From an uncultured bacterium (lineage in GTDB: Bacteria > Fermentibacterota > Fermentibacteria > Fermentibacterales > JCC-6): a stretch of DNA of 64,000 bases. Positions 238 to 36,421 of this stretch are shown in pieces. The number at the start of each line of letters is the position of its first letter. Position 1 is the first letter of the stretch. The notes beneath the pieces were generated by a model that was given only the letters and a program-made list of their open reading frames with translations, was not told the DNA's origin and did not search any database. The translations under genes were made by a program, and so were the position numbers. The stretch is taken from positions 1 through 64,000 of the forward strand of contig CAYREX010000009.1 of the NCBI GenBank assembly GCA_964423505.1. The letters are read 5' to 3'.

Positions 238-1197
238 CTATTCTGGCTCCGGAGTTATAGAGCTTCCCTTCCTTTTCTTCGCCGCCCACTCCATCGTTGC
301 CCTGAACGCCTCCACCGGGGGGGTGCTGGGGCTCCAGCCGGTTAGCTCGTGGGTGCGGCTGTCGTCGGCGTGCCAGTCGCAGGCGAGGAGCTCCCTGCAC
401 TTGTCCCTGGTGAAGAAGGGCGTCTTGCCGAGGATGTTGGCGAGGAGCTCGGCGTTGAGGCCCGCGAACCTTATGAGGAAGCCCGGGATGCATATGCGCA
501 GGACCTTCCTGCCCGCTGCCTCGGAGAGCATCTGGCGGAAGACCTTCCAGGTGTAGGTGCAGCCGTAGGAGGGGTCGAGTATCTCTCCCTCCGCCTCGGG
601 GCAGTTCGGGAGCATGGCGACGAGATCTGCCAGGTCCGGGCCGTAGACCATTGCGAAGCCGCCCTCGTTGCAGGGGGTGAGCAGCATTCCTCTGCTGGCC
701 GCTCTGAAGACGGGTCTCGATGCGTCGTCTCCCGGGCCGAAGACGGCGGGAGGCCTGAGGATTACCCAGTTGGCGGATTCCCTCACCGCTATCTCCCCCA
801 GGAGCTTGCTGCGTCCGTAGGCGGTGACCGGGCCTCTCCTGCCGGGGCCGGCCGCGGCCTGGCTGCTGACGTAGACGAGGAGGGCCTTTCTGCAGGCGGC
901 GTCCCTGGCCCTGACCATCATGGCGGTGAGGAGGCCGTTGGCCCTGTCGAACTCCTCCTGGCTGCCGGCGGCCACGGCGCCTGCGCAGTGGACCAGGAGG
1001 TCCGAGCCGCCGATGGCTTCGCTCAGTCGTTTCCTGTCCATCATGTCCAGGCGGACGGTCTCGCAGCCCTCTGGTATGCGGCGGGTGCTGGAGGTCTGCC
1101 GGAGGAGGGTGTGGACCCGCCAGCCGCTGTCCAGGAGCTTTCTCGCGATGTGGCTGCCGAGGAAGCCGGAGGCTCCCGTGAGCGCTGCTGTTGCCAC
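238..1197 (-). CDS. cerR: NAD(P)-dependent epimerase/dehydratase-family reductase, candidate 3-ketodihydrosphingosine/ceramide reductase (CerR-like)
   Basis: 319 aa; N-terminal Rossmann motif GASGFLGSHIARKLL; YGRSK (YxxxK) catalytic motif; GTG start; divergent from a serine palmitoyltransferase gene, as in Caulobacter-type ceramide clusters. Confidence 0.7.
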   Translation of the reverse strand: MATAALTGASGFLGSHIARKLLDSGWRVHTLLRQTSSTRRIPEGCETVRLDMMDRKRLSEAIGGSDLLVHCAGAVAAGSQEEFDRANGLLTAMMVRARDAACRKALLVYVSSQAAAGPGRRGPVTAYGRSKLLGEIAVRESANWVILRPPAVFGPGDDASRPVFRAASRGMLLTPCNEGGFAMVYGPDLADLVAMLPNCPEAEGEILDPSYGCTYTWKVFRQMLSEAAGRKVLRICIPGFLIRFAGLNAELLANILGKTPFFTRDKCRELLACDWHADDSRTHELTGWSPSTPPVEAFRATMEWAAKKRKGSSITPEPE

Positions 1198-1217
1198 TCT
1201 GCCCCCGAGCAGTCAAG

Positions 1218-1229
1218 TTGACTTGTCAA
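1218..1229. promoter_or_regulatory. Inverted repeat TTGACttGTCAA in the divergent cerR/spt promoter region, candidate operator or -35 element
   Basis: TTGAC-tt-GTCAA read directly in the 100-bp divergent intergenic region; TTGACT also matches a sigma70 -35 consensus. Confidence 0.3.
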
Positions 1230-1295
1230 ATGCCCCTGATTAGCTTCCTGCGCAATGCTACACGCACCCGTACAAGCTGGCAAGGTGGTCTTCCT

Positions 1296-2480
1296 TTGAG
1301 CAAGCGTGCGTTCCGTAAGTGTCACGAGTATGACCGGGTGGAGAGGGTCCGGGAGAACGGCCTCTACCCGTACTTCGTGCCCCTGGGTGGCCATGTGGGC
1401 GCGGAGATGAAGATAGAGGGCCACAGCATCATCATGCTGGGCTCCAACAACTACCTGGGCCTCACGGACCACCCGGTGGTGATGGACAAGGCCAAGGAGG
1501 CAATAGACCGATACGGCACAGGGTGTACGGGGAGCAGGTTCCTGAACGGCACGCTGGACCTGCACATCGAGCTGGAGGACAGGCTGGCGGAGTTCCTGGG
1601 CAAGGAGATGGTGATTACCTTCTCCACGGGGTTCCAGGCCAACCTGGGCGTCATAGGCACGGTTGCCGGCAGGAACGACCTGCTCTACCTGGACAGGCTG
1701 AACCACGCATCCATCATAGACGGCTCCAGGATGAGCTTCGCCAGGGTGCTGAAGTACAGGCACAACGACCACGACCACCTGCGCTATATGCTGGAGAACA
1801 ACCCGGACCACCCGGCGGTCATCATCACCGACGGTGTGTTCAGCATGGAGGGGGACCTGGCGCAGCTGCCGGGCCTCGTGGAGATATCCAGGGAGTACGA
1901 CGCGGTTCTCATCGTGGACGACGCCCACGGCCTGGGGGCCATGGGGGCCACCGGCCGGGGGACGGCCGAGCACTTCGGGTGCCTGGAGGAAGTGGACATA
2001 CTGGTGGGGACCTTCAGCAAGTCCTTCGCCTGCATAGGTGGCTTCGCCGCGGGGCCGGCCCACGTGATGGAGTACGTGAAGCACACCGCGAGGCCGATGA
2101 TATTCTCCGCAAGCCTGCCGCCGGCGGCGGTGGCCACGGTGCTGGCTGCCCTGGACGTGCTGGAGGCGGAGCCGGAGCTTGTGGCGCGGGCCCACAGGGC
2201 CGCCGAGAGGGCCCGCAAGGGCCTGGCAGAGCTGGGGTTCAACGTGGGCAACTCCGAGACCCCCATAGTGCCCATCATCGTGGGGGAGGAGCTTCAGACG
2301 CTCATCCTCTGGAAGAGGCTCTACAAGGCCGGCGTCTTCACCAACCCGGTGGTGAGCCCCGCCGTGGCCAGCGGCGAGGAGATGCTGAGGACCAGCTACA
2401 TGGCCACCCACACCGACGAGATGATAGACCGTGCGTTGGACATCTTCGAGAGCACCGGGAGGGAGCTCGGCCTTATCTGA
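1296..2480 (+). CDS. spt: Serine palmitoyltransferase / alpha-oxoamine synthase (PLP-dependent)
   Basis: Matches the Sphingomonas SPT pattern GLYxYFxP...GSNxYLGL, then FSTGFQANLG, DxLNHASIIDG, DGVFSMEGD, DDAHGLG, GTFSKS (PLP lysine), FSASLPPA, NPVVSPAV. Start is uncertain: TTG at 1296 follows an AAGGTGG RBS and gives MSKR...; the first ATG is at 1230; the ORF opens at 1191. Confidence 0.85.
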   Translation: MSKRAFRKCHEYDRVERVRENGLYPYFVPLGGHVGAEMKIEGHSIIMLGSNNYLGLTDHPVVMDKAKEAIDRYGTGCTGSRFLNGTLDLHIELEDRLAEFLGKEMVITFSTGFQANLGVIGTVAGRNDLLYLDRLNHASIIDGSRMSFARVLKYRHNDHDHLRYMLENNPDHPAVIITDGVFSMEGDLAQLPGLVEISREYDAVLIVDDAHGLGAMGATGRGTAEHFGCLEEVDILVGTFSKSFACIGGFAAGPAHVMEYVKHTARPMIFSASLPPAAVATVLAALDVLEAEPELVARAHRAAERARKGLAELGFNVGNSETPIVPIIVGEELQTLILWKRLYKAGVFTNPVVSPAVASGEEMLRTSYMATHTDEMIDRALDIFESTGRELGLI

Positions 2481-2499
2481 CCCGGCAATCGGAGGTCCG

Positions 2500-3672
2500 A
2501 TGTCCGAATCAGCCCCCGTCAGCGTAGAGCAGACCCGCGGGAAGACCGGCCTGAGGGAGTTCGTGCGGCTGCCGTTCGAGCTCTACCGGGACGACCCCTG
2601 CTGGGTGCCGCCGGTGCGCCGCATCCAGATGCAGCTGTTCGACAGCGGCCACCCGTTCCACGAGCACGGCGAGGTGACCACCTACCTGGCCAGGCGGGAC
2701 GGCAGGGCGGTTGGGCGCATTGCCGCCATAGTCAACCACGCCCACAACGAGTACCACGGCGAGAGGACCGGGTTCTTCGGCTTCCTGGAGGCCGGTGACG
2801 ACCAGGAGGTCTTCGCGGCGCTGCTCGGGGCGGCGGAGCGGCGGCTGGCCGAGGCGGGCATGGAGAGCTGCAGGGGGCCGATGGAGTTCTCGACGAACGA
2901 GGAGTGCGGCCTGCTGGTGAAGGGCTTCGACGGGCCTCCCATGGTGATGATGCCCTACAACCCGCCCTGGTACCTGGAGCGCCTGGAGGAGTGCGGCTAC
3001 CGGAAGGTAATCGACCTCTACGCCTACAGGCTGGTGGACGACGGCAACCGCTTCGAGCGGCTGGGGAGGGTGGCCGCGGCGGTGCTCCGGAGGCCCGGGG
3101 TGAGCGTGCGCAACCTCTCCGTCCGGCACATCTCCCGGGACATCCCGGTGATAATGGACATATACAACGAGTGCTGGAGGCGGAACTGGGGCTTCGTCCC
3201 CATGACCGAGCGGGAGCTGGACGCTATGGCGGACGAGCTGAAGCTCATCCTCAGGCCCAGCCTGGCCCCGATAGTCGAGGTGGACGGGGAGCCGGTTGCC
3301 TTCGCGGTGGCGCTGCCCGACGCCAACCAGGCGTTCATGAGGGCCCGGGGGAGCCTGGTCCGCGCGGCGCTCCTGCTGAAGGTGCCTCCGTTCAGGATGC
3401 ACGTAGACGCGGCCAGGGTCCTGCTGCTGGGGGTCAGGGAGGCCCACAGGGGCAGGGGGCTGGAGGCGCTGATAATCCACAGGATAATAGAGAGCTGCCT
3501 CGAGATGGGCATGACCAGCGCGGAGATGTCCTGGATACTGGAGGACAACGAGCCGATGAAGCGGATACTGGGCCGGATGGGCGCCGACCAGTACCGCACC
3601 TACAGGATACTCGAGAAGGGCCTCACCGGGCAGGGAGAGCCCCCTCCGCGCGAAGAAGGGGAATCCACATGA
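2500..3672 (+). CDS. GNAT-fold N-acyltransferase, candidate bacterial ceramide synthase (bCerS-like)
   Basis: 391 aa beginning MSESAPV after a GGAGG RBS, 20 bp downstream of spt; the ~390-aa GNAT-like acyltransferase architecture typical of genes next to bacterial spt; its stop overlaps the alaS start. Confidence 0.6.
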   Translation: MSESAPVSVEQTRGKTGLREFVRLPFELYRDDPCWVPPVRRIQMQLFDSGHPFHEHGEVTTYLARRDGRAVGRIAAIVNHAHNEYHGERTGFFGFLEAGDDQEVFAALLGAAERRLAEAGMESCRGPMEFSTNEECGLLVKGFDGPPMVMMPYNPPWYLERLEECGYRKVIDLYAYRLVDDGNRFERLGRVAAAVLRRPGVSVRNLSVRHISRDIPVIMDIYNECWRRNWGFVPMTERELDAMADELKLILRPSLAPIVEVDGEPVAFAVALPDANQAFMRARGSLVRAALLLKVPPFRMHVDAARVLLLGVREAHRGRGLEALIIHRIIESCLEMGMTSAEMSWILEDNEPMKRILGRMGADQYRTYRILEKGLTGQGEPPPREEGEST

Positions 3673-5453
3673 CCACGCGAGAGCTCAAGGAGATGTACCT
3701 GGAGTTCTTCCGGGGGAGGGGGCACGCCGTTATACAGGGTGCCTCGCTCATCCCGGAGAACGACTCCACCATCCTCTATACCCCGGCCGGCATGCAGCCG
3801 CTGGTACCCTATCTGATGGGGGAGCGGCACCCTGCGGGGCGCAGGCTGGCGGACGTGCAGAAGTGCATCCGCACCGGCGACATCGAGGAGGTGGGAGACC
3901 CGACACACCTTACCTTCTTCGAGATGCTGGGCAACTGGTCCCTGGGCGACTACTTCAAGCGCGAGGCCATAGAGATGAGCGTGGAGTTCCTGACCTCGGA
4001 GAGGTGGCTGGGCTTCGACATGGAGAGGCTGCACGTCACCGTCTTCGCCGGGGACGGGGCGGTCCCGCCCGACGAGGAGGCCGCCAGGTACTGGGAGGAG
4101 GCCGGCGTCCCGAGGGAGCGCATCTACTTCCTGGGGCGGGATGACAACTGGTGGGGCCCCACCGGCGCCACCGGCCCCTGCGGCCCCGACACGGAGATGT
4201 TCATAGACACCGGCAGACCGCCCTGCTCCGACGGCTGCCTCCCCGGCTGCGGCTGCGGGAAGTACTTCGAGGTCTGGAACGACGTCTTCATGGAGTACCG
4301 GAAGACGGCGGAGGGCACCTTCGAGCCGCTGGAGCAGAAGAACGTGGACACCGGCATGGGCGTGGAGCGAACCGTCGCGATGATGCGTGGCATGGACAGC
4401 GTTTACGGGGTGCCGCTCTTCGAGCCGGTCCTGCAGGCCATAGGGGAGCTCTCCGGGAAGAGCGCCCCGGAGGGGGCGGACCTGAGGAGCACGAGGATAG
4501 TGGCCGACCACATCAGGACGGCCACCCACATCCTGGGAGACGACCAGGGAGTGCCGCCGTCGAACCTGGACAGGGGCTACATTGTCCGAAGGCTCATAAG
4601 GCTTGCGGTCCGGCACGGACGGAGGCTGGGCATAGAGGGGCCCTTCCTGGCCGGTCTCGCCGAGCGGGTCATAGAGGAGGAGTCCGGCGCATGGCCGGAG
4701 TTGTCGAAGAACAGGGACTTCGCCCTGACGGAGCTTGCCGCGGAGGAGGAGCGCTTCGAGAAGACCCTGCAGTCCGGCCTCAGGGAGTTCGAGAAGATGC
4801 TCCCCAACCTGCTGAAGAACCCCCGGAAGCTGGTCCCGGGCAGGCTGGCCTTCAAGCTGTACGACACCTACGGCTTCCCGGTGGAGTTCACGGCGGAGCT
4901 CGCCTCGGAGCAGGGGATGACCGTGGACATGGATGGCTACAGGAAGGCCTTCGAGAAGCACCGGGAGAAGTCCCGCCAGGGGCTCGAGAAGAAGTTCAAG
5001 GGCGGCCTCGCCGACCACGGCGAGATGGTCACGAAGCTCCATACCGCCACCCACCTGCTCCACCAGGCGCTCAGGGAGGTGCTGGGCGACCACGTCGAGC
5101 AGAGGGGCAGCAACATCACCGGGGAGCGGCTGCGCTTCGACTTCTCCCACCCTGAGGCGATGACCGACGGGGAGCTGGAGGAGGTCGAGCGCGTGGTAAA
5201 CGAGCTGATAGAGGCGGACCTGCCTGTCAGCTACCAGGAGATGCCCCTGCAGGAGGCGCTGGACGACGGGGCCATCGGGGTCTTCCGCAGCAGGTACGAC
5301 GAGCGGGTGAAGGTCTACTGCGTGGGCGAGTTCTCCAAGGAGATATGCGGAGGCCCCCACGTGGGAAGCACCGGCGAGCTGGGCAGGTTCAGGATAATCA
5401 AGGAGAAGAGCTCCTCCCGGGGCGTAAGGCGGATAAGGGCGGTGCTGGAATGA
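3669..5453 (+). CDS. alaS: Alanine--tRNA ligase, short form lacking the C-Ala domain
   Basis: N-terminus MTTRELKEMYLEFFRGRGH...FFEMLGNWSLGDYFK; editing-domain HTATHLLHQAL and CGGPHV motifs; stops after 594 aa (typical AlaRS is ~870 aa). Confidence 0.9.
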   Translation: MTTRELKEMYLEFFRGRGHAVIQGASLIPENDSTILYTPAGMQPLVPYLMGERHPAGRRLADVQKCIRTGDIEEVGDPTHLTFFEMLGNWSLGDYFKREAIEMSVEFLTSERWLGFDMERLHVTVFAGDGAVPPDEEAARYWEEAGVPRERIYFLGRDDNWWGPTGATGPCGPDTEMFIDTGRPPCSDGCLPGCGCGKYFEVWNDVFMEYRKTAEGTFEPLEQKNVDTGMGVERTVAMMRGMDSVYGVPLFEPVLQAIGELSGKSAPEGADLRSTRIVADHIRTATHILGDDQGVPPSNLDRGYIVRRLIRLAVRHGRRLGIEGPFLAGLAERVIEEESGAWPELSKNRDFALTELAAEEERFEKTLQSGLREFEKMLPNLLKNPRKLVPGRLAFKLYDTYGFPVEFTAELASEQGMTVDMDGYRKAFEKHREKSRQGLEKKFKGGLADHGEMVTKLHTATHLLHQALREVLGDHVEQRGSNITGERLRFDFSHPEAMTDGELEEVERVVNELIEADLPVSYQEMPLQEALDDGAIGVFRSRYDERVKVYCVGEFSKEICGGPHVGSTGELGRFRIIKEKSSSRGVRRIRAVLE

Positions 5454-6391
5454 GAAGCGTACCCGCGGCGGCACTTCTGGCCGCCATCCTCTCGACCTGC
5501 GCCGCGGCGGACTGGTCCGGCGCGTGGGAGACCACCTACGGCATGCTCTTCCTCTCCCAGGATGGCGACCGGGTGACCGGCCACTACGACATCAGCGGCT
5601 ACTCCTCGGTGGAGGGGACCGTGACGGATGACGGCAGGCTGGTCTTCACCTACCGGGAGCCCGCGGCCAGCGGCGAGGGCTGGTTCGAGATGGGTCCGGA
5701 CTCCATGAGCTTCGCGGGGGAGTGGAGCGAGGACGGCTCCGGTACCTGGTACGACTGGGAGGGCTTCCGCGCCGGGGCGGGCGTGGCCCCCTCGCGGTGG
5801 CTGGTCATCCTGGAGGCGGAGTGGCAGACGAACCTCAGCGAGAGGGAGTACTCCTTCGGGGAGATGCTCGACTCCTGGTTCGCCAGGGTGGAGGGGGTGA
5901 CGGTCAGGCACCGCTTCATCCACGACGAGGAGGACCTGGAGCGCTTCCTCATGGAGAGCGCAGGGCTCACCGGCGAGGTCTACCTGCTGCTGGCCTCCCA
6001 CGGCACCGGCGACGGCCTGGAGCTGCCCGGGGGAACCGTGGACGCCGGGGAGCTCATACATGCCCTGGAGCCGGTCCGGAACCTGGCGCTGCTCCACTTC
6101 AGCTCATGCGAGATAATGGCCGGCGAGACGCCGGGGGAGGTGCTCGCCTCCAGGGACGACTGGCCGGAGGGATTCGTGGTCTCCGGGTACACCAGGAGCG
6201 TTGACTGGGGGGCCAGCGCCGTGCTGGAGGTCTTCTACCTGAACCAGATGCTGGAGAACGGCTTCCCGCCGGAGGACGCGGCCAGGTCCGTAGAGGACTG
6301 CATCACCTTCGCGGGGACGGACGACACGCAGTGGATGGAGGGCGCCGGGTTCACGTGGATGGCCCCGGGCCGGGTAATCCGCATAAGGTAG
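5450..6391 (+). CDS. Secreted caspase-like (clan CD, C14/C13-type) cysteine peptidase domain protein
   Basis: Signal peptide MRSVPAAALLAAILSTCAAA; caspase His-Gly and Cys strands VYLLLASHGTGDG and LALLHFSSCE; ATGA overlap with the alaS stop. Confidence 0.55.
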   Translation: MRSVPAAALLAAILSTCAAADWSGAWETTYGMLFLSQDGDRVTGHYDISGYSSVEGTVTDDGRLVFTYREPAASGEGWFEMGPDSMSFAGEWSEDGSGTWYDWEGFRAGAGVAPSRWLVILEAEWQTNLSEREYSFGEMLDSWFARVEGVTVRHRFIHDEEDLERFLMESAGLTGEVYLLLASHGTGDGLELPGGTVDAGELIHALEPVRNLALLHFSSCEIMAGETPGEVLASRDDWPEGFVVSGYTRSVDWGASAVLEVFYLNQMLENGFPPEDAARSVEDCITFAGTDDTQWMEGAGFTWMAPGRVIRIR

Positions 6392-6405
6392 CGAGGAAGG
6401 AAGAG

Positions 6406-7458
6406 ATGGAACTGGAACTCCTCAGGAGGCTCTGCGAGACAGACGGCATCTCTGGCAGGGAGGACGCCGTTGCCGAGGTCTTGGGCGAGGCCATGGCCCC
6501 GCACGTCGACGAGGTGACCACCGACGCGGTGAAGAACGTCACCGGCTTCAGGAAGGGCACCGGCGGGGGCGACCTGCCCAGGGTGATGCTGGCCGGGCAC
6601 ATAGACGAGATAGGCTTCCTCGTCAACAACATCGACTCAGGCGGCTTCGCCTCGGTGACCACCGTGGGCGGCTGGAGCGCGATAAACATCGTCTCCAGCA
6701 CGGTCAGGGTGCATACCAGGGACCACGGGGCGCTGCACGCCGTGATGGCGCGCAGGGCGGAGATAGACCCGGAGAAGCTGAAGAAGGTCCCGCCCTACTT
6801 CAACCTCTACCTGGACTTCGGCATGGACCCGGACGAGGTGCACGGGAAGGTCGCCCGCGGCGACTGGGTGACCATGAGCACCCCCTACCGGGAGCTTGGC
6901 GACTGCATGGTGGCCAAGGCCTTCGACGACAGGGTGGGGGCCTTCGTCATCGCCGAGGCCGCGAAGCGCTCGAAGAGCCCCGGCATCGATCTCTACGCCG
7001 TAGGCACCGCCCAGGAGGAGGTGGGCCTGCGCGGCTCCGCCGTGGCCGCCCAGAGGATAAGGCCCCACGTGGGAGTAGCGGTGGACATAACCGGCTCCGG
7101 GGACATCCCCGGCCATCCGGAGCGCATGCGCGTGACCGAGCTGGGCAAGGGCGTCGCCATCAAGTACATGGACTCCAGCGTCATCAGCTCCACCTACCTC
7201 GTGGACATGCTCCGCGGCATCGCCGAGGAGGAGGGCATAGACTACCAGATGGAGATACTGCCCAGGGGCGGCACCGACACGGCCAGCATGCAGCGCTTCG
7301 GCCCGGGCGCACACGCGGCCTGCCTCTCCATACCCACCAGGTACGGACACAGCCCCACCGCCGTCATTCACAGGCACGACGTCGAGACTGCCGTCGAGCT
7401 GCTGGCGGCCTTCCTGGACAGGATGGGGCCCGGCTCCGGCCTCCCGGGCCTGCCGTGA
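6406..7458 (+). CDS. M42 family metallo-aminopeptidase (glutamyl aminopeptidase / CelM-like)
   Basis: 351 aa; ISGREDAVAEVL..., GHIDEIGF, metal-binding region DDRVGAFV...QEEVGLRG; RBS AGGAAGGAAGAG upstream. Confidence 0.8.
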   Translation: MELELLRRLCETDGISGREDAVAEVLGEAMAPHVDEVTTDAVKNVTGFRKGTGGGDLPRVMLAGHIDEIGFLVNNIDSGGFASVTTVGGWSAINIVSSTVRVHTRDHGALHAVMARRAEIDPEKLKKVPPYFNLYLDFGMDPDEVHGKVARGDWVTMSTPYRELGDCMVAKAFDDRVGAFVIAEAAKRSKSPGIDLYAVGTAQEEVGLRGSAVAAQRIRPHVGVAVDITGSGDIPGHPERMRVTELGKGVAIKYMDSSVISSTYLVDMLRGIAEEEGIDYQMEILPRGGTDTASMQRFGPGAHAACLSIPTRYGHSPTAVIHRHDVETAVELLAAFLDRMGPGSGLPGLP

Positions 7459-8501
7459 CCGCCGCCGTACTGCTGGCGCTGCTCGCCTCGCTGCCACAGG
7501 GCAGCCCGGAGGCGGGCTACACGGCAACCTTCTCCATCGCCGCGGTGGACACGACAACCGGGGAGATGGGTATAGCCGTGGCCTCCTGCGTGCCCTTCGT
7601 CGGCAGGGACGTACCGTGGGCCCGGGCAGGCGTCGGAGCGGTCGCCACCCAGGCATGGGTGAACCAGTCCTACGGGCCGGACGGCCTGGCCCTCCTCGAG
7701 TCGGGCCACTCGCCGGCCATGGCGCTGGACAGCCTTCTGAAATGGGACCCGGACAGCGAGCAGAGGCAGGTGGGCATAGTCAGCGCCGCCGCCGAGGCGG
7801 TCAGCTTCACCGGCGCCGAGACGATGGACTGGGCCGGAGGGCTGACGGGGCCCGGCTACGCCGTGCAGGGCAACATCCTGGTGGGCGAGGATGTCGTCAC
7901 ATCCATGGAGGAGGCCTTCCTGGCGACGGAGGGGCCTCTGGCCGTTCGCCTGCTGGCCGCCCTGCAGTCCGGCGAGGACGCAGGCGGGGACAGCCGCGGC
8001 AGGCAGTCCGCCGCCATCCTGGTGGTGCGCGAGGGCGCGGGCCACGGAGGCTGCACCGATGTCTTCGTGGACATAGCCGTCTCCGACCATCCGGAGCCCA
8101 TTCCGGAGCTGTCCAGGCTCTACGGCATCTGGGAGCGCTGGTACGTGCTGCCTGTATACCTCGACGACGGGGAGGGGCCGGAGACCGAGTGGGCACTGGG
8201 CATCATCAACAGGGTCGCGGAGGAGTCCCCGGACGACCCCCAGGTGCTGAACTCGGTCGCCTGGGCGCTGGCCGAGAGGGGGCTGCACCCGGAGAGGGCT
8301 GTGGAGCTGGCCCTGCGGGCCCACGGGCTCGCCCCGGACGACCACAACATCATGGACACGGTGGCCACGGCCCACTACGCTGCGGGGGACTACGCCGAGG
8401 CGGTCCGCTGGGAGCGGAGCGCGCTGGAGCTGGACCCGGGCAACGAGTTCTACCTGGAGCAGCTGGAGCGCTTCCGGCAGGCGGCTGAGGAGCTGCAATG
8501 A
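7455..8501 (+). CDS. DUF1028 (Ntn-hydrolase-like) protein with C-terminal TPR region
   Basis: TFSIAAVDTTTGEMGIAVASCVPFVG signature of DUF1028; C-terminal TPR-like helices; GTGA overlap with the upstream gene. Confidence 0.6.
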   Translation: MTAAVLLALLASLPQGSPEAGYTATFSIAAVDTTTGEMGIAVASCVPFVGRDVPWARAGVGAVATQAWVNQSYGPDGLALLESGHSPAMALDSLLKWDPDSEQRQVGIVSAAAEAVSFTGAETMDWAGGLTGPGYAVQGNILVGEDVVTSMEEAFLATEGPLAVRLLAALQSGEDAGGDSRGRQSAAILVVREGAGHGGCTDVFVDIAVSDHPEPIPELSRLYGIWERWYVLPVYLDDGEGPETEWALGIINRVAEESPDDPQVLNSVAWALAERGLHPERAVELALRAHGLAPDDHNIMDTVATAHYAAGDYAEAVRWERSALELDPGNEFYLEQLERFRQAAEELQ

Positions 8502-8642: not shown

Positions 8643-8876
8643 ATGTCTGAGCTTACGAAAAGGGCCACTGTATACATTGATCCCGCTCTACACCGGGCGC
8701 TGCGGCTGAAATCCGTAGAGACTTCAAAATCCATGTCAGAGCTGATCAACGACGCAATTCGAGAAGAACCAGCAGAGGACGCTGAAGACCTGGCCATCTT
8801 CCCTGCGCGCCAGCACGAGCCAACCGTCACGTTCGAGGCCTTCGTTGAAGGACTGAAGCGTGATGGCAAGCTATAG
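8643..8876 (+). CDS. Ribbon-helix-helix (CopG/Phd-like) antitoxin
   Basis: 77 aa; directly upstream of, and overlapping, a RelE/ParE toxin gene; lies in a low-GC islet. Confidence 0.6.
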   Translation: MSELTKRATVYIDPALHRALRLKSVETSKSMSELINDAIREEPAEDAEDLAIFPARQHEPTVTFEAFVEGLKRDGKL

Positions 8877-9120
8877 GGTTCTCATCCGGAAATCGGTACG
8901 GAAAGACCTCGATGGAATCCCGAAGAAGGATGTGCAAGGAATCGTCAAGGCAATCAGCAGCCTAGCCGAGGATCCGCGACCGCGGCAATCCAAAAAGCTA
9001 TCTGGAGAAGAGAAGTACAGGCTTCGGTGCGGTTCTAACCGGGTGCCTTACGAGATCCAGGACAGGGAACCGGTTGTATACATCGTTCGAGCCAGGCATC
9101 GTAGAGACGCGTATAGATAG
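8860..9120 (+). CDS. RelE/ParE-family type II toxin
   Basis: 86 aa; YRVLIRKSVRKDLDGIPKKDVQGIVKAISSL...LSGEEKYRLRCGSNRVPYEI...VYIVRARHRRDAY is the RelE/ParE pattern. Confidence 0.7.
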   Translation: MMASYRVLIRKSVRKDLDGIPKKDVQGIVKAISSLAEDPRPRQSKKLSGEEKYRLRCGSNRVPYEIQDREPVVYIVRARHRRDAYR

Positions 9121-9138
9121 AAAGCGAACAACAGCATG

Positions 9139-9155
9139 CAGCAGCCTGGCTGCTG
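9139..9155. other. Perfect 8-bp inverted repeat CAGCAGCC-T-GGCTGCTG downstream of the toxin gene
   Basis: Read directly; no T-tract follows, so not a canonical intrinsic terminator. Confidence 0.3.
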
Positions 9156-9442
9156 ATGCTGAGCGGCCTCATCGCATACCCCAATCGCGCCAGCCAGGAA
9201 GGGTACTGATCCAACCTCTGCCCTGGCATAACTCAGGCATCAGCCCGAGCAACCCTTTTCACCAGTTCGAACGCCGACATGCCCTGAGTACGACTGAGAG
9301 CACCTCCCGTTTTTCAACTGACCTCTCTGCCAGGTGGCTCCGTTGTCCGAGCGATTCGTGAAGCCGGATTTCATCCGACAGTCGCCCGCGGGGCCATGCC
9401 TGGTATGACCGTATCTGCTCTCATGTTTGGGCATCGCTACCG

Positions 9443-10939
9443 TTATCGGGGTATGGACTGGCCGGCGCGCAGCCGCTCCAGGATGTCCTCGTGGGCCTCG
9501 GCCCTCTCCTCCATGCCCAGCTCCCTGGCCAGGAGCGCCGCCTGCGCGTGGCCCTGGTAGCGGGCGAGGGAGCCCTGGGGGGAGATGACCGCCTGCCTCT
9601 CGAAGAGCTCCAGGGCGGTCTCGCTGTCGCCCATGTCCAGCGCCCTGAAGGCCAGCGAGCCCACGTAGAGGTTCTCGGGCACCTCTGGGACCGGGTAGAG
9701 CAGCGCGGGGACCATCAGCAGGAGGCCGGCGGCCGCCTGGAGGACCGCCCTGCGCCTGCTGCTGCCGAAAGCCCTCGCCAGGGCCGTCCAGCCGGAGGCC
9801 GCCGCGGCGAGCATCAGCGGGAGCACCGGAAGGAAGTACCTCTCGGAGTGGACGAAGAGGAGCGCCGCGAGGAGGGTGACCGCTATGGGCAGCATTATCA
9901 CCGTCCTGCCGCTGCCGCTCCTCAGGAAGGGCACCAGGCCGGCCAAAAAGAGCCCGACGATGAGCCACCGGGGCAGGACGAGGAGCCTCAGGACCGGGCT
10001 GAAACGACCGGCCCTGCCCATCTCGTAGTAGGTGTCGAAGGGCCTGGCGCCGAAGAAGCCCCCCAGCTTCGTCATCAGCAGCCTCAGCTCCTCCGCAGGG
10101 TGGGAGGCGGCCCACTCGAGGGCCCGTCCGGTCCAGAACCGGTCGGCCTCGGCCGTGGTTGTGTGGCCGCTGTCGGCGGCAACCCGGAGGGCGACCGAGT
10201 GTATGTCCCCCTGGCCGGTCTCCAGGAGGCCCCATGAGGGCGCCGGTGGGCCGTAGCCGGTGGCGTCCGGGTTGTGGCCCAGGGCGAGGTTCAGGCCGGT
10301 GGAGACCGGGAAGGGCCTGAAGTCGCCGCCCGCCCTGCGGCTGCGGTGCGCCAGGAAGATGAGCGGCGCCATCATGGAGCAGAGCCCGACGACCAGGAGG
10401 AGCCATCTCTTCCTGCGCACCCAGTAGGCAGCCGGGACCAGGAAGGACAGCAGAAGCGGCGGCCTGAGGCCGGCGGCGAGGCCGGGGAGGAGGCCCTGAG
10501 CCGCCGCCCTGAGAGGGTTCTCGTCGTGGGAGATGGTGACGCAGGTGAAGACGGCCATGAGCAGCGCCAGGAAGGCAACCGGGAGCAGCGTCAGCTCCAC
10601 GAGGACCAGGGGGGCGTATAGCGACGCGGCCAGGGAGGCGAGGAAGGAGGGTAGGGGGGAGGCGCCGGCCCTTCGGGCGAGCCTCATGGTGAGCACCGCC
10701 GTGAGGACGCCCGCGACGCTCTGGGCCGCGAAGACGCCGGCCCTGCCTGCTCCCGCCGCGTAGAAGGGGAGTATCAGGAACCGGTACAGCGGGCTGGCGT
10801 AGGTGAAGGGGCCGGCGTCCCCCGTCCCTCCGGCGAGGGCGATGGCCGCCTGCTCGAACTTCCTGCATGCCAGGACCGGCCAGTAGTGGAGCCTGGCCGA
10901 CGCCGAAGTCGCCCAGACCGCGAAGTGGGCCGTGCGCAC
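9443..10939 (-). CDS. Integral-membrane GT-C fold glycosyltransferase-like protein (GT39/ArnT-like) with C-terminal TPR
   Basis: 498 aa, more than 10 predicted TM helices, C-terminal TPR-like region; GTG start. Confidence 0.5.
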   Translation of the reverse strand: MRTAHFAVWATSASARLHYWPVLACRKFEQAAIALAGGTGDAGPFTYASPLYRFLILPFYAAGAGRAGVFAAQSVAGVLTAVLTMRLARRAGASPLPSFLASLAASLYAPLVLVELTLLPVAFLALLMAVFTCVTISHDENPLRAAAQGLLPGLAAGLRPPLLLSFLVPAAYWVRRKRWLLLVVGLCSMMAPLIFLAHRSRRAGGDFRPFPVSTGLNLALGHNPDATGYGPPAPSWGLLETGQGDIHSVALRVAADSGHTTTAEADRFWTGRALEWAASHPAEELRLLMTKLGGFFGARPFDTYYEMGRAGRFSPVLRLLVLPRWLIVGLFLAGLVPFLRSGSGRTVIMLPIAVTLLAALLFVHSERYFLPVLPLMLAAAASGWTALARAFGSSRRRAVLQAAAGLLLMVPALLYPVPEVPENLYVGSLAFRALDMGDSETALELFERQAVISPQGSLARYQGHAQAALLARELGMEERAEAHEDILERLRAGQSIPR

Positions 10940-11020
10940 CGCCAGGGCAACGACACCCGCTGCCAGCTCCAGTCTCGCCAGGCGCCGGTCGCCACCCGTC
11001 CGGTTCGTCGAGGCAGCCCC

Positions 11021-11671: not shown

Positions 11672-11807
11672 GCTTCCTCTCCCTCCCGCCGCCGCTGCCT
11701 CGGCGGCCGTCTCACTATAACCAGAGAGGGGAGGGGGTACTAGCGCCCCGGTGGCGGTCGGCTTAGTATTCTCTCCGGGAGATGTCCAGAAAAGCTTGGA
11801 GGGTGCC

Positions 11808-14039
11808 ATGAGAGTCATTGCCGCTGCATGTCTGGTCCTGCCGGCCGCCCTTGCGGCCTGGCCGTCCTCGCTGCCGGGAGCCACCAACCCGCCGGAGGAG
11901 CCGATGCCGGTGACCGAGTACCTGGTGGACCAGGTGACCCGCTGCCCCGGGGGTGTGCCGGAGAGGGAGATGGTCTCCAGCCTCTCCAGGGATACCATCC
12001 CTCCGGAGTACGATCTGGTGGACGTGCTGGAGGAGGCCGTCTACGTGACCCCGGGCGACGAGTACGTGGTGGTGTTCGACCACTCCGAGGAGTCGCTGTC
12101 GGACACCCTGGTGCCCTACGAGCTGACCGCTCTGGCCTGGGACGCGGTGGAAGCCGCTCCCGGCTGGATGGAGGAGGACCTTGTCTGGGCCTTCCACCTG
12201 CTCTCCGAGGACAACCAGGACCGCTACGCCGAGGTGATACTGGACGTCGAGGACTCCCGGGTGATGGACGAGGTGGCCTTCCAGGTGGCGCACCTCTCGT
12301 GGACCAACATTGCCAATCCCTCCTGGGACGAGACCCTGCTGGAGAACAACGCGAACTGGATATACGAGATAGAGGACGACCTGCAGTACGTGCGGGTGAA
12401 CGACTACGGTGGCGATGACTACTACAGCACGACGGAGTACAGGTTCCTGGAGGGCACCGACGACACGGTGTGGGTGGAGATACCGCAGGAGATCTACTAC
12501 TGGTGGATAGTCATGCCGAAGGTCTCCGACGAGCTGCCGCTGCAGGACTCCTCGGTCTACGGCTACTTCTGGAGGGAGTACCTGTACACGCAGCACGACT
12601 CCGGCTACCCGCTCCTCTCCGAGGTCATGGCGCCGGTGGAGGTGCTGTGGGACGGCCTGGAGTACAACTGGGCCGGGGGCAGGCCGTTCACCGACGACAT
12701 GATGGCGGTTGACGCCATAGGCAACTGGTGCTCGGAGACCGTGCCCTACGCCGCCTCGGGGAACAGGCCCATACAGCCCAACGTCATAGCCCACGAGCAC
12801 GACGGCAACTGCGGCGAGCTGCAGGACCTGCTCTCCGCCGCCTGCAGGACCTGTCTGGTGCCGGCCCTCTGCACCATGGACATCCTGGAGGACCACGTCT
12901 GGTGCGAGATGTGGTGGGACGGCGAGTGGGTGCCGTACCAGGTGGAGCTGGGCGGCAACCGGACACAGATAAACAACCCGGGCATCGCCTACGACGCGGA
13001 TATGGGCGGCTCCAAGGAGTGCTCCTGCATCTGGGACTGGAGGAACGACGGCTGGAGCTGGCAGTCCATCGCCACCTACTCGCAGACCTGCACGCTCACG
13101 GTGGTCATCCGGGACTCCACCGGGGCCCCGGTGGACCACGCCAGGGTATCGATCGGCAGCGAGTCCTACTACCCGCCGTACAACGTCTCCAGGGGCACCT
13201 GGGCTGTCACCGACAGGCAGGGTGCGGCGACCTTCATCCTCGGCAACAACCAGAACTACTACGTCAGCATAGCCTCCCCGCTCGGCAACTACCCGGCCAG
13301 CGGCTGGGGGACGCTCATCGAGGACAGCGAGGCGGGGGAGCACTACCTCTGGGAGTGGACCACGCCGGACTCCGTGCCGGTGCCCGACGTCTCGGCCGAG
13401 ACAGAGGGGGAGATGACCGCCTACTTGCTGGAGGTGGAGTACGAGCTGCCCTTCGACGTGCAGCACGACCGCGACTTCTACGCCAACCCGAGGAACGAGT
13501 ACGCGCGGAGGCTCGAGGACGGCGTGCTCCGGCACTTCGTGGTGGACGGCACCAATCTCCAGGCCTACCTGGACGACCAGCCCTTCCAGGCGCTGGACCT
13601 GGTCGAGGGCGCCGGCGAGGCCAGGGTGCTCTGCTACCCCCGCTGGCAGAGGGACCGCTACGTGGTCCTCTCCGGCCGGTCCAACATCGGCCTCTCCACG
13701 ATGGCCGAGGTGAGCGTCAGCCTCTGGAGGCACGACGGCACCGGGGTGGAGGGCGCTGCGCCCCACGACCCGGCCGTATCCGCCGGTCCGAACCCCACGA
13801 CCGGCAGCTACTCGGTGAGCTTCGCCACCGCCTCCGCCGGGAAGGCGGTCCTCTCGGTCTACGACCTCGCAGGGAGGATGGTGGCCTCCGTGGAGAGCGG
13901 CGAGCTGGAGCCCGGCTCCCACCGGATCTCGTGGGACGGGACCGACTGGTCCGGCTCCCCCGCCTCCCGCGGCACCTACCTGGTGCGGCTCAGCGCTCCC
14001 GGGGTGCGGCACACCGGGAGGCTCCTGCTGCTGAGGTAG
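11808..14039 (+). CDS. Secreted transglutaminase-like cysteine peptidase domain protein with T9SS-type C-terminal sorting domain
   Basis: Signal peptide MRVIAAACLVLPAALAAWP; transglutaminase core GNCGELQDLLSAACRTCLVPA...DHVWCEMWWDGEWVPYQ (Cys-His-Asp); C-terminal AVLSVYDLAGRMVAS...SWDG...GTYLVRL tail shared with three other proteins in the window. Confidence 0.7.
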   Translation: MRVIAAACLVLPAALAAWPSSLPGATNPPEEPMPVTEYLVDQVTRCPGGVPEREMVSSLSRDTIPPEYDLVDVLEEAVYVTPGDEYVVVFDHSEESLSDTLVPYELTALAWDAVEAAPGWMEEDLVWAFHLLSEDNQDRYAEVILDVEDSRVMDEVAFQVAHLSWTNIANPSWDETLLENNANWIYEIEDDLQYVRVNDYGGDDYYSTTEYRFLEGTDDTVWVEIPQEIYYWWIVMPKVSDELPLQDSSVYGYFWREYLYTQHDSGYPLLSEVMAPVEVLWDGLEYNWAGGRPFTDDMMAVDAIGNWCSETVPYAASGNRPIQPNVIAHEHDGNCGELQDLLSAACRTCLVPALCTMDILEDHVWCEMWWDGEWVPYQVELGGNRTQINNPGIAYDADMGGSKECSCIWDWRNDGWSWQSIATYSQTCTLTVVIRDSTGAPVDHARVSIGSESYYPPYNVSRGTWAVTDRQGAATFILGNNQNYYVSIASPLGNYPASGWGTLIEDSEAGEHYLWEWTTPDSVPVPDVSAETEGEMTAYLLEVEYELPFDVQHDRDFYANPRNEYARRLEDGVLRHFVVDGTNLQAYLDDQPFQALDLVEGAGEARVLCYPRWQRDRYVVLSGRSNIGLSTMAEVSVSLWRHDGTGVEGAAPHDPAVSAGPNPTTGSYSVSFATASAGKAVLSVYDLAGRMVASVESGELEPGSHRISWDGTDWSGSPASRGTYLVRLSAPGVRHTGRLLLLR

Positions 14040-20034: not shown

Positions 20035-21708
20035 GTGCGGAACGCGCTGACGGTCCACGGTCTCCTCGAGGAGGCCGCGAGGCGCTCGCCGGGGAAGGTC
20101 GCCCTCTCGGACGACCACCGTGACCTGACCTACGCCGACTGGTGGCGGGTGGCCGGGGCCATCGCCGGTCGCCTCTCCGGCGCCGGAGCCGGCAGGGAGA
20201 CCGTCGTCGGCGTGGTCACGGACAGGTCGGCGTTCCTTCCCTGCGCGTTCACAGCCGTCTCCATGATAGGCGCCAGGTTCCTGGCCACCAACCCCGGATG
20301 GCCTCCGTCGGACTGGGAGCGGGTCTTCGGGAGATGGCCCTCCAGGCTGATACTGAAGCTCGAGGGAACCGGGCTCGATGTGCCGGTGCCGGAGGGAACG
20401 GAGTTGCTCGAGCTCCCCCCGGACATCTACCACGGGGCGGACAGCGTCCTCGAGCCGTTCGACGCGACGCCGGAGAGGGAGGTCTACCTGAACGCCACCT
20501 CCGCCTCCACCGGCCAGGCCAAGATCGTCCCCACCACCCACGCCCAGCTGCTGGCGAACACCGCAGGCGTCTGCAGGACCATGGGGCTCACACCGGACGA
20601 CGTTCACCTCTCCCTCTTCGGCGTCTACGGCCATCCCCACGAGCTCTTCATGAGGGGGCTATACCTCGGCGGCCGGACGGTGCTTACCGAGAGGCGCTAC
20701 CCCAGGGACCTGCTGGAGGTCCTGGGGGAGCAGCGGGTCACCGTGATCATGGGCCTCCCCCCGCAGCTGGGGAACCTCTCCCGGCTTTGGGAGCGGAGCG
20801 AGGAGGAGCCGGCGGACCTGAGGCTGGCCGAGGCGGGCGGCATGCACGTCACCACCGAGCTGGCCGTCGGTTTCAGAAAGCGGACCGGCGTCGACCTGAT
20901 ACCGGTATGGGGCAGCACCGAGACCTCGGGCGTCGGGCTGGTGGGCAGCCCGGACGCGGAGGGCTTCGACCACGTGGTGGACGGTTACCAGATGGAGCTC
21001 CGCGACGCCGACGAGGAGTCGGTGGTGGTATCCGGACCAGGAGAGCTCTGGATTCGGGGCCCCGGGGTAACCGCGGGCTACGCCGGAGACAGGGCCAAGA
21101 CGGAGGAGGCCTTCCGGGACGGCTGGTACAGGACGGGCGACATGTTCAGCCGGAAGGGAAGCAGGCTCCGGTTCCTCGGCAGGCGGGGAGGGCTCATAAA
21201 GGCCTCCGGCCTCAAGGTCTATCCCCTCGAGGTGGAGCTTGCCCTGCTCAGGCATCCCGGAGTGGTGGAGGCCTGCGTGGTGGGCAGGGACCACCCGCTC
21301 AGGGGTGAGATGCCCACCGCCTACATCGTGCCCAGGCCGGGCGTGGAGCTGACCGCGGCCGGCATCCGCGGCTTTCTCAGGCCCATGCTGGACGAGCACA
21401 AGCTGCCCAGGCTCATCCACTTCGTAAGGGGCCTACCCAGGACCGCCGGCGGCAAGATAGACAGGAAGGCCATAGGCGTCCGGGAGATTGCCCCGGACTA
21501 CCGCAGCGAGCTGCTGAGGTCGGACGTCGAGCTGGTGAGGCTGCTGAACCACCGGACGGAGCTGATGGAGAACATAGGCGGCGGCTTCGACCCCACATGG
21601 GTCGACGAGCAGGAGGACAACGCCGTGGGTCACAACCCGGGGCCGATGCCGGACGGCGCCCTCAGGAGGATAATGAGGTTCATCATCCAGGAGCTCGGCA
21701 GGGGCTGA
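20035..21708 (+). CDS. AMP-dependent synthetase/ligase (acyl-CoA synthetase family)
   Basis: TSASTGQAKIV (AMP-binding P-loop-like), WGSTETSG, YRTGD, PRTAGGKIDRKAI C-terminal lysine motif. Confidence 0.75.
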   Translation: MRNALTVHGLLEEAARRSPGKVALSDDHRDLTYADWWRVAGAIAGRLSGAGAGRETVVGVVTDRSAFLPCAFTAVSMIGARFLATNPGWPPSDWERVFGRWPSRLILKLEGTGLDVPVPEGTELLELPPDIYHGADSVLEPFDATPEREVYLNATSASTGQAKIVPTTHAQLLANTAGVCRTMGLTPDDVHLSLFGVYGHPHELFMRGLYLGGRTVLTERRYPRDLLEVLGEQRVTVIMGLPPQLGNLSRLWERSEEEPADLRLAEAGGMHVTTELAVGFRKRTGVDLIPVWGSTETSGVGLVGSPDAEGFDHVVDGYQMELRDADEESVVVSGPGELWIRGPGVTAGYAGDRAKTEEAFRDGWYRTGDMFSRKGSRLRFLGRRGGLIKASGLKVYPLEVELALLRHPGVVEACVVGRDHPLRGEMPTAYIVPRPGVELTAAGIRGFLRPMLDEHKLPRLIHFVRGLPRTAGGKIDRKAIGVREIAPDYRSELLRSDVELVRLLNHRTELMENIGGGFDPTWVDEQEDNAVGHNPGPMPDGALRRIMRFIIQELGRG

Positions 21709-21709: not shown

Positions 21710-22465
21710 ATGGAGATAAGGGCCGTAAGGGTAGGCAGCGTCCTGATAGGCGGCGGCAGCCCGGTCCTCATCGCCGGTCCCTGCTCCGTGGAGGGCGTCG
21801 AGATGCTCCGGGAGGTGGCGGAGGCCGCGCAGGCCGCGGGTGCAGGCATACTCCGGGGCGGCGCCTTCAAGCCGAGGACCTCCCCCTACTCCTTCCAGGG
21901 TCTGGGCCTGGAGGGGCTCAGGATGCTGCGCGACGTCGGACGGGAGCTGGGCATGCCGGTGGTCAGCGAGGTAATGACCATCGCCCAGATAGAGCCAGCC
22001 CTGGAGTACATCGACATGATACAGGTGGGGGCGCGCAACATGCACAACTTCCCCCTGCTCTCCGCCCTGGGGATGGTGGACGCCCCGGTCCTCCTGAAGC
22101 GGGGCTTCATGGCCACGGTCGAGGAGTGGCTCATGGCGGCGGAGTACGTCGTGAAGGAGGGGAACTCCCGCGTCGTCCTCTGCGAGAGGGGGATAAGGAC
22201 CTTCGAGACCTGGACCAGGAACACGCTGGACATATCTGCGGTGCCGCTGGCCAGGATGATGGGCGGATACCCCGTGGTGGTCGACCCCTGCCATGCCGCG
22301 GGCAGGAGGGACCTGCTCGAGCCGCTCAGCCTCGCGGGACTTGCCGCCGGGGCCGACGGGATAATGCTGGAGGTCCATCCGGACCCGGACAAGGCGCTCT
22401 CCGACGGAGGCCAGTCGCTCTCCCCGGAGGGGCTGCGGCGGCTGGCCGCGAAGCTGCTGGGATAG
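21710..22465 (+). CDS. 3-deoxy-7-phosphoheptulonate (DAHP) synthase, short class I-beta type
   Basis: LIAGPCSVE, GAFKPRTSPYSFQGLG, VDPCHAAGRRD motifs; 251 aa. Confidence 0.75.
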   Translation: MEIRAVRVGSVLIGGGSPVLIAGPCSVEGVEMLREVAEAAQAAGAGILRGGAFKPRTSPYSFQGLGLEGLRMLRDVGRELGMPVVSEVMTIAQIEPALEYIDMIQVGARNMHNFPLLSALGMVDAPVLLKRGFMATVEEWLMAAEYVVKEGNSRVVLCERGIRTFETWTRNTLDISAVPLARMMGGYPVVVDPCHAAGRRDLLEPLSLAGLAAGADGIMLEVHPDPDKALSDGGQSLSPEGLRRLAAKLLG

Positions 22466-35668: not shown

Positions 35669-36421
35669 GGGGACAACTCGACGATTGCTCAGGCTGAGCA
35701 GACAAGGCTGATCTCTTTCCTGAACGCCGGGGGCGGGCTCTACATCGAGGGCGCAGACTTCGGCTACAACAACTCCGGCAGCGCCATCTACGAAGTCTTC
35801 GGCTGCAGCTACGACGGCGACGGCAGCTCCTCGGGCAACGTCCAGGACGTGGCCGGCGTCACCGGCACGATGCTGGACGGCATAGCCTGCGACTACATCC
35901 ACGACACCGGCCCCGACAGCTACGTCGACGAGATATCCGCCGACGAGGGCACGCTCCTGATGCGCTCCCAGGACGGCAAGGGCAGGGCCGTCTGTTGGGA
36001 GGGGGCCGGCGGCACCTACAGGGCCCTGCACTCCAGCGTCATCTTCGGCGCCCTCCGCGACGGAACCTCCACGAAGCGGGAGCTCATGGAGACGTACATG
36101 GGCTACCTCACCGGCAGCACCGGGGTCGGGGAGAGCTCCGGGGGCCTGACGCCCGCCGGGCTCGCCCTCGAGTACGCGAACCCCGCCAGGGGGACGGTCG
36201 AGCTGACCGCCACCGTACCAGGGGGGGAGGCGGACATCAGCGTCTACGACCTCACCGGAAGGCTGGTGGGGACCATCCACGGCGGACAGCTCCGGCCCGG
36301 TACCCACCGCTTCTCCTGGGACGGCCGTGCGGACACCGGGACCAGGCTGCCCGGAGGGACCTACGTGGTGCGTCTGGGAACGGAGCAGGGGAGCGTCACC
36401 GGTACGCTCCTGCTCATCTAG
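35669..36421 (+). pseudogene. Continuation of the same frame: C-terminal part of the T9SS cargo protein (interrupted gene, or UGA-recoded)
   Basis: Same frame as 35405 (both equal 2 mod 3); no in-frame ATG/GTG/TTG until 35849; carries the T9SS C-terminal domain ...DISVYDLTGRLVGT...FSWDG...GTYVVRL. Confidence 0.5.

Follow-up and report, generated by a model that had tools for sequence, protein, structure and literature searches.

Studies of Caulobacter have described a ceramide pathway (PMC11087976, PMC11324152, PMC9386255). In this bacterium, the genes CC_1162-1165 and CC_1154 are needed for dihydroceramide, CC_1164 and CC_1154 were named cerR and cerS, respectively, and LptF2/LptG2 (CC_1156, CC_1155) directly adjoin CC_1154 (PMC11324152). 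The yghO gene (ECD_02850) of Escherichia coli and its Sphingomonas homologues are the counterparts of CC_1154, and ECD_02852 is the counterpart of CC_1164 (PMC9386255). The spt, bcerS, and cerR genes of Bacteroidota were reported to be non-adjacent, and a Black Sea metagenome study found potential sphingolipid producers in about 40 phyla, with the three genes often clustered (PMC11334938). The present analysis concerns three adjacent genes near the start of a 64,000-nt window (the whole stretch of DNA analyzed, positions 1 to 64,000 of contig CAYREX010000009.1, assembly GCA_964423505.1) from an uncultured bacterium of the Fermentibacterota, related to Aegiribacteria. Judging from the sequence, this trio very probably encodes the bacterial ceramide-backbone pathway. 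The preliminary description of the same DNA had matched the three-gene set to the Spt/bCerS/CerR route, and both the family assignments and the gene linkage fit that proposal. All three open reading frames (ORFs) that it had listed were present at or near the positions given there:

238-1197, minus strand: CerR-like extended short-chain dehydrogenase/reductase (SDR) of the NAD(P)-dependent epimerase/dehydratase family (319 aa; Pfam Epimerase)
1198-1295: intergenic spacer of 98 bp, from which the reductase and Spt genes are transcribed divergently (read from the sequence)
1296-2480, plus strand: predicted serine palmitoyltransferase (Spt) of the Bacteroidetes/deltaproteobacterial type (394 aa; within ORF 1191-2480)
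2500-3672, plus strand: bCerS-like tandem-GNAT N-acyltransferase, assigned to the YghO/CC_1154 family (390 aa)

The divergent transcription of the reductase from Spt was confirmed, with the 98-bp spacer lying between them. The Spt and GNAT genes are as close as had been described, except that their spacer (Spt stop at 2480, GNAT ATG at 2500) is 19 nt and not 20 nt. The GNAT gene has a ribosome-binding site, GGAGG, at 2491-2495. The Spt start was placed at the TTG at 1296, as in the gene prediction made independently for two identical contigs that had been assembled from different sequencing runs; this agrees with the position where the Spt profile alignment begins. Alternative in-frame starts are found at 1230 (ATG) and 1191 (TTG).

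Caulobacter crescentus possesses the same three enzyme families, also clustered, with the same predicted dihydroceramide backbone: Spt (CC_1162), bCerS/CerS (CC_1154 = CCNA_01212), and CerR (CC_1164 = CCNA_01222). The Caulobacter-type GNAT, a tandem protein of about 375 aa from the YghO family, represents the family to which the window GNAT was assigned. In Caulobacter, the genes are distributed over a region of 17 genes, whereas the window locus is compact, with the SDR gene divergent from Spt-GNAT. Two further differences are the Bacteroidetes/deltaproteobacterial type of the window Spt and the coupling of the Spt and GNAT genes to alaS, which is a property of the window. In Bacteroidota, the three genes are scattered, whereas in the window they are contiguous; at the same time, the closest characterised enzyme to the window Spt is the serine palmitoyltransferase (SPT) of Sphingobacterium multivorum, with conserved motifs common to both. 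The yghO locus of E. coli B/BL21-type strains (ECD_02850-02854) and the Sphingomonas and Roseomonas clusters carry, beside spt, GNAT and SDR proteins with 34-40% and 29-31% identity to those of the window. These proteobacterial loci differ in the additional genes that encode an acyl carrier protein (ACP), a fatty acyl-AMP ligase, and LptF/G paralogues, and in their Spt, which is of the rhodobacterial type. In E. coli K-12, the cluster is missing and yghO is a pseudogene.

The distribution of the trio was analyzed by scanning the GNAT alignment over one genome per species, which gave at least 600 stretches, 599 of them encoding a relative. The best 80 of at least 599 GNAT loci were searched with the window proteins, up to 6 kb on each side. 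According to the record titles, they belong to about 20 phyla, including Zixibacteria, Latescibacterota, Eisenbacteria, Gemmatimonadota, Acidobacteriota, Planctomycetota, Chloroflexota, Ignavibacteria, Elusimicrobiota, Verrucomicrobiota, Nitrospirota, Myxococcota, and Bdellovibrionota. A homologue of Spt was found within 6 kb of the GNAT gene in 55 of these 80 loci, and homologues of both Spt and SDR in 42. For the 57 loci in which the GNAT gene was flanked by 3 kb or more on either side, the corresponding proportions were 44/57 and 35/57. The window layout, with the SDR gene on the opposite strand ahead of Spt-GNAT, was observed in 11 genomes; the other gene orders were Spt-GNAT-SDR (14 genomes), SDR-Spt-GNAT on one strand (9), and SDR-GNAT-Spt (7). 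This co-location of Spt, GNAT, and SDR far exceeds chance, and no other single argument for a joint function of the three genes is as strong as its persistence over distant phyla. The preliminary description had considered the combination unusual. This view was not borne out, since the trio is linked in about 20 phyla and the arrangement is thus common; the pathway had, moreover, already been predicted in about 40 phyla (PMC11334938).

The trios of uncultured Zixibacteria, Ignavibacteria, Gemmatimonadota, Eisenbacteria, Acidobacteriota, Planctomycetota, and others and those of Actinomycetota plasmids have the same gene content as the window. Their Spt and GNAT proteins share 43-56% and 36-48% identity, respectively, with the window proteins, but none of these loci has alaS downstream. 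Two of the plasmids, from Rubrobacter radiotolerans (locus L091, 4704-10296) and Streptomyces sp. (L092, 4763-9289), contain a tight Spt-GNAT-SDR operon. The gene 3' of the trio belongs to the LTA-synthase family in the Rubrobacter plasmid and encodes a condensation domain in the Streptomyces plasmid; these neighbours hint at differing downstream modifications in Gram-positive hosts.

The synthase matched Pfam Aminotran_1_2 with an E-value of 1.9e-58. Its top NCBIfam model was NF047600 (SerpalmtaseCFB, the Bacteroidetes-type serine palmitoyltransferase) with 507.7 bits, followed by the BioF/Kbl-related subfamily TIGR01825 (406.6 bits), the beta-proteobacterial Spt (396.4 bits), Kbl (384.6 bits), and BioF (377 bits), so that NF047600 leads every non-Spt model by about 100 bits. 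Among solved structures, the best relative was the characterised S. multivorum SPT (PDB 3A2B, 8GUH), with 416 bits and 49% identity over 376 residues. Lower scores were obtained for Thermus BioF/Kbl (310 bits), the Sphingomonas SPTs (267-287 bits), Kbl (257-266 bits), cysteate-C-fatty acyltransferase (238 bits), SulA (223 bits), and BioF (203-228 bits). The PLP-lysine motif GTFSKS and the motifs HASIIDGS and DDAHGLG align with those of the S. multivorum enzyme and are near-identical. Identity to the alpha/gamma-proteobacterial Spt type was 35-39%. In a neighbor-joining (NJ) tree of 35 sequences, the synthase joined other Fermentibacterota proteins inside a clade that also held the SPT of S. 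multivorum together with GNAT-linked synthases from many phyla; next to it stood a group of proteobacterial Spts, and E. coli Kbl and BioF fell outside. As this was a simple distance-based tree with a small reference set, few outgroups, and no bootstrap, it was counted as supporting evidence only. A grouping with BioF/Kbl rather than with Spt had been named in the preliminary description as a result that would speak against its proposal; in the NCBIfam models, the solved structures, and the NJ tree alike, the synthase groups with Spt.

The GNAT protein matched Pfam Acetyltransf_1 (E-value 1.7e-8) in its C-terminal half only. It was matched by no NCBIfam model, and a sequence search of solved structures gave no meaningful match (the best was SecB, E-value 0.19). 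A translated search with the GNAT protein over 72,556 plasmid and chromid records revealed 45 matches, 44 of which covered at least 80% of the query. Identities were 37% to E. coli YghO (over 95% of the length), 34% to an 'N-acetyltransferase' of Sphingomonas parapaucimobilis, and 39-40% to Roseomonas proteins. Nine Fermentibacterota and proteobacterial GNAT sequences could be aligned collinearly along their whole length, and 41 columns were invariant. The E. coli, Sphingomonas, and Roseomonas GNAT loci all contain an ACP, a pyridoxal phosphate (PLP)-dependent enzyme of the aminotransferase class (Spt), an epimerase-family/NAD(P)H-binding protein, and LptF/LptG paralogues; a fatty acyl-AMP ligase is also encoded in the E. 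coli and Roseomonas clusters. In the Roseomonas locus, the gene order is the same as that of LptF2/LptG2-CC_1154 in Caulobacter. The AlphaFold model of the window protein showed a tandem GNAT with a predicted local distance difference test (pLDDT) score of 90.3 and a predicted template modelling (pTM) score of 0.87. Its best structural matches were other tandem GNATs with 9-15% identity. The two-domain fold is common to the window protein and to the solved tandem GNATs, namely the clavulanate-pathway enzyme (2WPW), MAB_4324 (7Q3A), a glucosamine N-acetyltransferase (5KF2), MshD, and Eis (TM-score 0.5-0.6 on the query, probability 1.0). These enzymes act on other substrates, and at 9-15% identity the likeness is one of fold and not of family. 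With structural matches this distant, the window GNAT is no close relative of the aminoglycoside/sugar acetyltransferases. Clustering with aminoglycoside or peptidoglycan acetyltransferases, the second unfavorable outcome foreseen in the preliminary description, was not observed; the protein is collinear with the YghO/CC_1154 family. Its predicted membership in the bCerS (YghO/CC_1154) family is thereby supported. In several RefSeq records of alphaproteobacteria (Roseomonas; e.g., L001, 12001-13152), the bCerS-family protein carries the label 'dATP pyrophosphohydrolase'. Given the GNAT fold and the sphingolipid-cluster context, this label looks like a propagated mis-annotation.

The reductase matched Pfam Epimerase (E-value 1.9e-21) and related NAD-binding models. 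Over its full length, it shared 29-31% identity with the epimerases of the E. coli (E-value 2e-35), Sphingomonas (2e-26), and Roseomonas (4e-21) clusters. The pairwise score with the E. coli counterpart was 117 bits, and the best NCBIfam model was HpnA with 74.7 bits (cut-off 367.65). In a tblastn search of the 72,556 plasmid records, the top-scoring matches were SDR genes located beside YghO-family GNATs, originating from Rubrobacter, E. coli, Pseudomonas, Rahnella, Klebsiella, Roseomonas, and Streptomyces; this served as a reciprocal-style check, for which the plasmid collection was assumed, rather than counted, to hold many other SDR genes. The TGxxGFxG motif (TGASGFLG), S111-S112, Y127-x-x-S-K131, and the C-terminal W...W-P pattern are invariant between the window protein and its proteobacterial orthologues. 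The best matches being the CerR-position genes of sphingolipid clusters, the CerR-like assignment made earlier was upheld, and the predicted membership of the reductase in the CerR (CC_1164) family is supported.

Based on these assignments, the following pathway is proposed. The soluble PLP enzyme Spt would join L-serine and a long-chain acyl-CoA to give 3-ketodihydrosphingosine, as expected from its close homology to a characterised enzyme; it probably takes acyl-CoA directly, like the Bacteroidetes-type enzymes. The tandem GNAT, by its family membership and gene linkage, would then place a second acyl chain on the amino group. Finally, the SDR, which has an intact Ser/Tyr/Lys set, may use NAD(P)H to reduce the 3-keto group, which would yield dihydroceramide. 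The order of acylation followed by reduction is borrowed from the Caulobacter model.

Several observations weigh against the ceramide reading. The connection to the Caulobacter proteins is indirect, being made via the published E. coli, Sphingomonas, and Roseomonas orthologues. The NF047600 score of the synthase (507.7 bits) is under the equivalog cut-off of 640. The gene could thus be retained as a predicted serine palmitoyltransferase, but not as the 'unambiguous' one of the preliminary description, and its amino-acid substrate is uncertain. The model was presumably built from Bacteroidota sequences, as its name (CFB) indicates, and the window protein comes from another phylum. Relatives of Spt can also take alanine or glycine (PMC11334938). 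Caulobacter CerR has been reported as periplasmic (PMC11087976), and the window reductase has no visible N-terminal signal peptide and starts directly at the Rossmann motif; the same kind of start is seen in the orthologues from E. coli, Sphingomonas, and Roseomonas. In 25 of the 80 genomes, no Spt homologue was found near the GNAT gene (up to 6 kb on each side, several contigs being short). Such loci were frequent in Anaerolineae and include L014, L017, L021, L022, L024, L025, L038, L061, L063, L068, L079, L080, L084, and L085, among others. They suggest that the GNAT family may have other roles or that the pathway genes may be dispersed. To our knowledge, the phylum has no cultured member.

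Three other explanations were compared with the proposed pathway. According to one of them, the enzymes would act in the eukaryote-like order, the SDR reducing 3-ketodihydrosphingosine to sphinganine before N-acylation by the GNAT. One group has put forward such an order for Caulobacter (PMC11324152, PMC9386255), and in an SDR with no visible signal peptide, no sequence feature demands action after export. On the other hand, a cerR deletion in Caulobacter accumulates oxidised ceramide, and CerR behaves as a periplasmic protein (PMC11087976). The window sequence itself has no bearing on the order of the steps, and the eukaryote-like order is given an appreciable but clearly minor chance. The main open alternative is another amino-acid substrate, so that the same enzyme types would produce a related N-acylated amino alcohol: a 1-deoxyceramide if alanine is used, a glycine-derived base, or, with cysteate, a capnine-type sulfonolipid like those of gliding Bacteroidota. 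Such a product would be consistent with the sub-cut-off score of Spt, with the known or proposed use of alanine and other amino acids by Spt relatives (PMC11334938), with the position of the host in the Fibrobacteres-Chlorobi-Bacteroidetes (FCB) group, where sulfonolipids occur, and with the co-transcription of spt and alaS. However, many conserved motifs are near-identical to those of the serine-using S. multivorum enzyme, and the alaS linkage is limited to one phylum, in contrast to the linkage of the trio, which is found in many. Against 416 bits for the S. multivorum SPT, the two solved types of cysteate acyltransferase reached 238 and 223 bits; the sulfonolipid reading was dropped because these scores are only about half that of SPT. 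No cysteate synthase gene was detected in the window, either. Taken together, a substrate other than serine appears improbable.

The remaining explanation dispenses with a lipid pathway: the synthase would be a Kbl/BioF housekeeping enzyme, and the GNAT and SDR its unrelated neighbours. The Kbl and BioF models did score strongly (385 and 377 bits), as expected within one superfamily, and among the solved structures Thermus BioF/Kbl (310 bits) outscored the proteobacterial SPTs (267-287 bits). Nevertheless, the matches to Kbl and BioF trailed both the Spt models and the solved SPT of S. multivorum by about 100 bits, Kbl and BioF fell outside the clade in the NJ tree, the trio remains linked over about 20 phyla, and no tdh or bio genes are located close by. 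A housekeeping enzyme with chance neighbours is therefore scarcely credible, and the ceramide-backbone pathway remains the preferred reading of the trio.

The nearest relatives of the window GNAT share 50-63% identity with it and bear the names Candidatus Fermentibacteria, Aegiribacteria, or Sabulitectum. The genome from which the window comes is not one of the species representatives in the collection scanned. Identities to Aegiribacteria sp. MLS_C were 80% for Spt, 75% for the alanine--tRNA ligase (AlaRS), and 61% for GNAT. Downstream of the GNAT gene, the following genes were annotated:

3669-5453, plus strand: short-form alanine--tRNA ligase, alaS (594 aa; NCBIfam NF002436)
5450-6391, plus strand: conserved hypothetical protein with a signal-like N-terminus (no Pfam/NCBIfam match)
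6406-7458, plus strand: M42 aminopeptidase (Pfam/NCBIfam matches)
7455-8501, plus strand: DUF1028 and TPR protein (Pfam/NCBIfam matches)

The GNAT stop codon and the ATG of alaS share an ATGA overlap at 3669-3672, and the junctions 3' of the GNAT gene are 4-nt overlaps or 14 nt apart. A terminator scan found no terminator-like site on the plus strand within 1296-8501, and the genes at 5450-8501 are the probable remainder of an operon with Spt-GNAT-alaS. The operon with alaS, as had been described, is thus corroborated by the ATGA overlap. The 'secreted peptidases' of the same description were not, since the M42 aminopeptidase (6406-7458) has no signal sequence; signal-like N-termini were observed only in the DUF1028 protein and the hypothetical protein. 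The AlaRS lacks the C-terminal C-Ala domain; truncation was ruled out, as the protein is a recognised short form (NF002436, 916.5 bits, cut-off 529). AlaRS is a co-transcribed neighbour and not an enzyme of the pathway.

The order SDR (opposite strand)-Spt-GNAT-alaS-hypothetical-M42 is kept in three more Fermentibacterota contigs and in the MLS_C genome record, and GNAT-alaS linkage was also found in one more Fermentibacterota metagenome-assembled genome. At the loci of relatives, alaS is located at 9246-10970 (L006), 9150-10937 (L007), 9129-10925 (L008), and 1405-3189 (L010). The linkage was present in every Fermentibacterota locus looked at, whereas alaS was near the GNAT gene in 0 of 78 loci of other phyla; the conserved alaS coupling is the sole phylum-specific feature. 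The hypothetical protein of about 300-325 aa is always encoded between alaS and the M42 gene in Fermentibacterota (L006, 10967-11938; L007, 10934-11881; L008, 10922-11812), and both it and the M42 gene keep their positions in L006-L008. In two relatives, the ceramide cluster lies just 3' of an lpxL-lptC-lptA-like-lptB-rpoN block (L006, 612-5243; L007, 1-3820), which places sphingolipid genes next to genes for lipopolysaccharide transport. Between this block and the cluster, there is a gene of the adenosine-specific-kinase family in both L006 and L007 and, in L007, also an asparaginase/GatD-like gene. The window begins too near the SDR gene for such an lpx/lpt neighbourhood to be seen. The coupling to alaS, an essential gene, suggests constitutive expression of Spt and bCerS, in which case the lipid may be a standing component of the envelope in this phylum. 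Only a slender chance is given to the further idea that spt-bcerS is wired into housekeeping via alaS throughout the phylum, with sphingolipids perhaps an obligatory outer-membrane component co-expressed and exported with lipopolysaccharide. More speculatively, the use of alanine could lead to 1-deoxysphingolipids, which would give the alaS link metabolic sense.

In the literature library searched, no paper mentioned this phylum together with sphingolipids, nor is it named in supplements of the Black Sea study. Fermentibacterota thus appears to be new in print as a predicted sphingolipid lineage, although the assignment may be hidden in figure data. The finding places a known pathway in a new host lineage and does not represent a new system. 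It adds an uncultured candidate phylum of the FCB group to the predicted sphingolipid makers and leaves the current picture unchanged, environmental surveys having already predicted the pathway in about 40 phyla. The compact three-gene unit offers an expressible test of the bacterial ceramide pathway outside Proteobacteria and Bacteroidota, and a contiguous trio in an FCB relative helps to trace the evolution of the cluster.

In the rest of the window, no ACP was found among about 50 ORFs scanned, and neither an AasR-like ligase nor an obvious ceramide head-group enzyme was detected; genes for LptF2/G2 and dedicated AcpR and AasR proteins were likewise not found in the window. An ACP/AasR pair is not expected here, because such a pair belongs to the alpha/beta/gamma-proteobacterial Spt type (PMC9386255). 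Two AMP-binding genes, 20035-21708 and 42530-44305 (both on the plus strand), are located 16 and 40 kb away; their best NCBIfam subfamily was long-chain-fatty-acid--CoA ligase, below the cut-off. The gene at 20035-21708 was ruled out as AasR, with 24% identity over part of the length to the E. coli counterpart, and both were set aside as AasR counterparts, being generic and acyl-CoA-ligase-like. Either of them could provide acyl-CoA. A KdsA-like gene (DAHP_synth_1; 21710-22465, plus strand) lies directly 3' of the AMP-binding gene at 20035-21708.

The G+C content of the window was 63-71%, in line with the high GC noted in the preliminary description. The codon-position GC of the SDR and synthase ORFs (GC3 of 0.87-0.88 versus GC2 of 0.43-0.54) follows the pattern typical of genuine genes of this genome. 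Sequence scans gave three promoter-like sites (0.9 expected) and five terminator-like sites (3.2 expected), and contribute little. One sigma-70-like match, a consensus match alone, was found on the minus strand (1283->1255) upstream of the SDR start. The preliminary description had regarded the genome as bearing a type IX secretion system (T9SS). This was overstated: the sole T9SS evidence in the window consists of one borderline cargo domain and two FlgD_ig C-termini, and no machinery gene was seen there. The T9SS C-terminal sorting domain Por_Secre_tail was matched by a large FG-GAP repeat protein (36494-39646, minus strand) with 27.5 bits against a cut-off of 27, and FlgD_ig C-termini were predicted in two proteins (11751-14039 and 35849-36421, both on the plus strand). 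Immediately 3' of the operon, where the GC content is slightly lower, lies a probable type II toxin-antitoxin pair, made up of a 77-aa ORF (8643-8876, plus strand) with weak similarity to ribbon-helix-helix antitoxins (E-value 0.0013) and an overlapping 86-aa ParE-family toxin (8860-9120, plus strand; Pfam E-value 2.9e-9).

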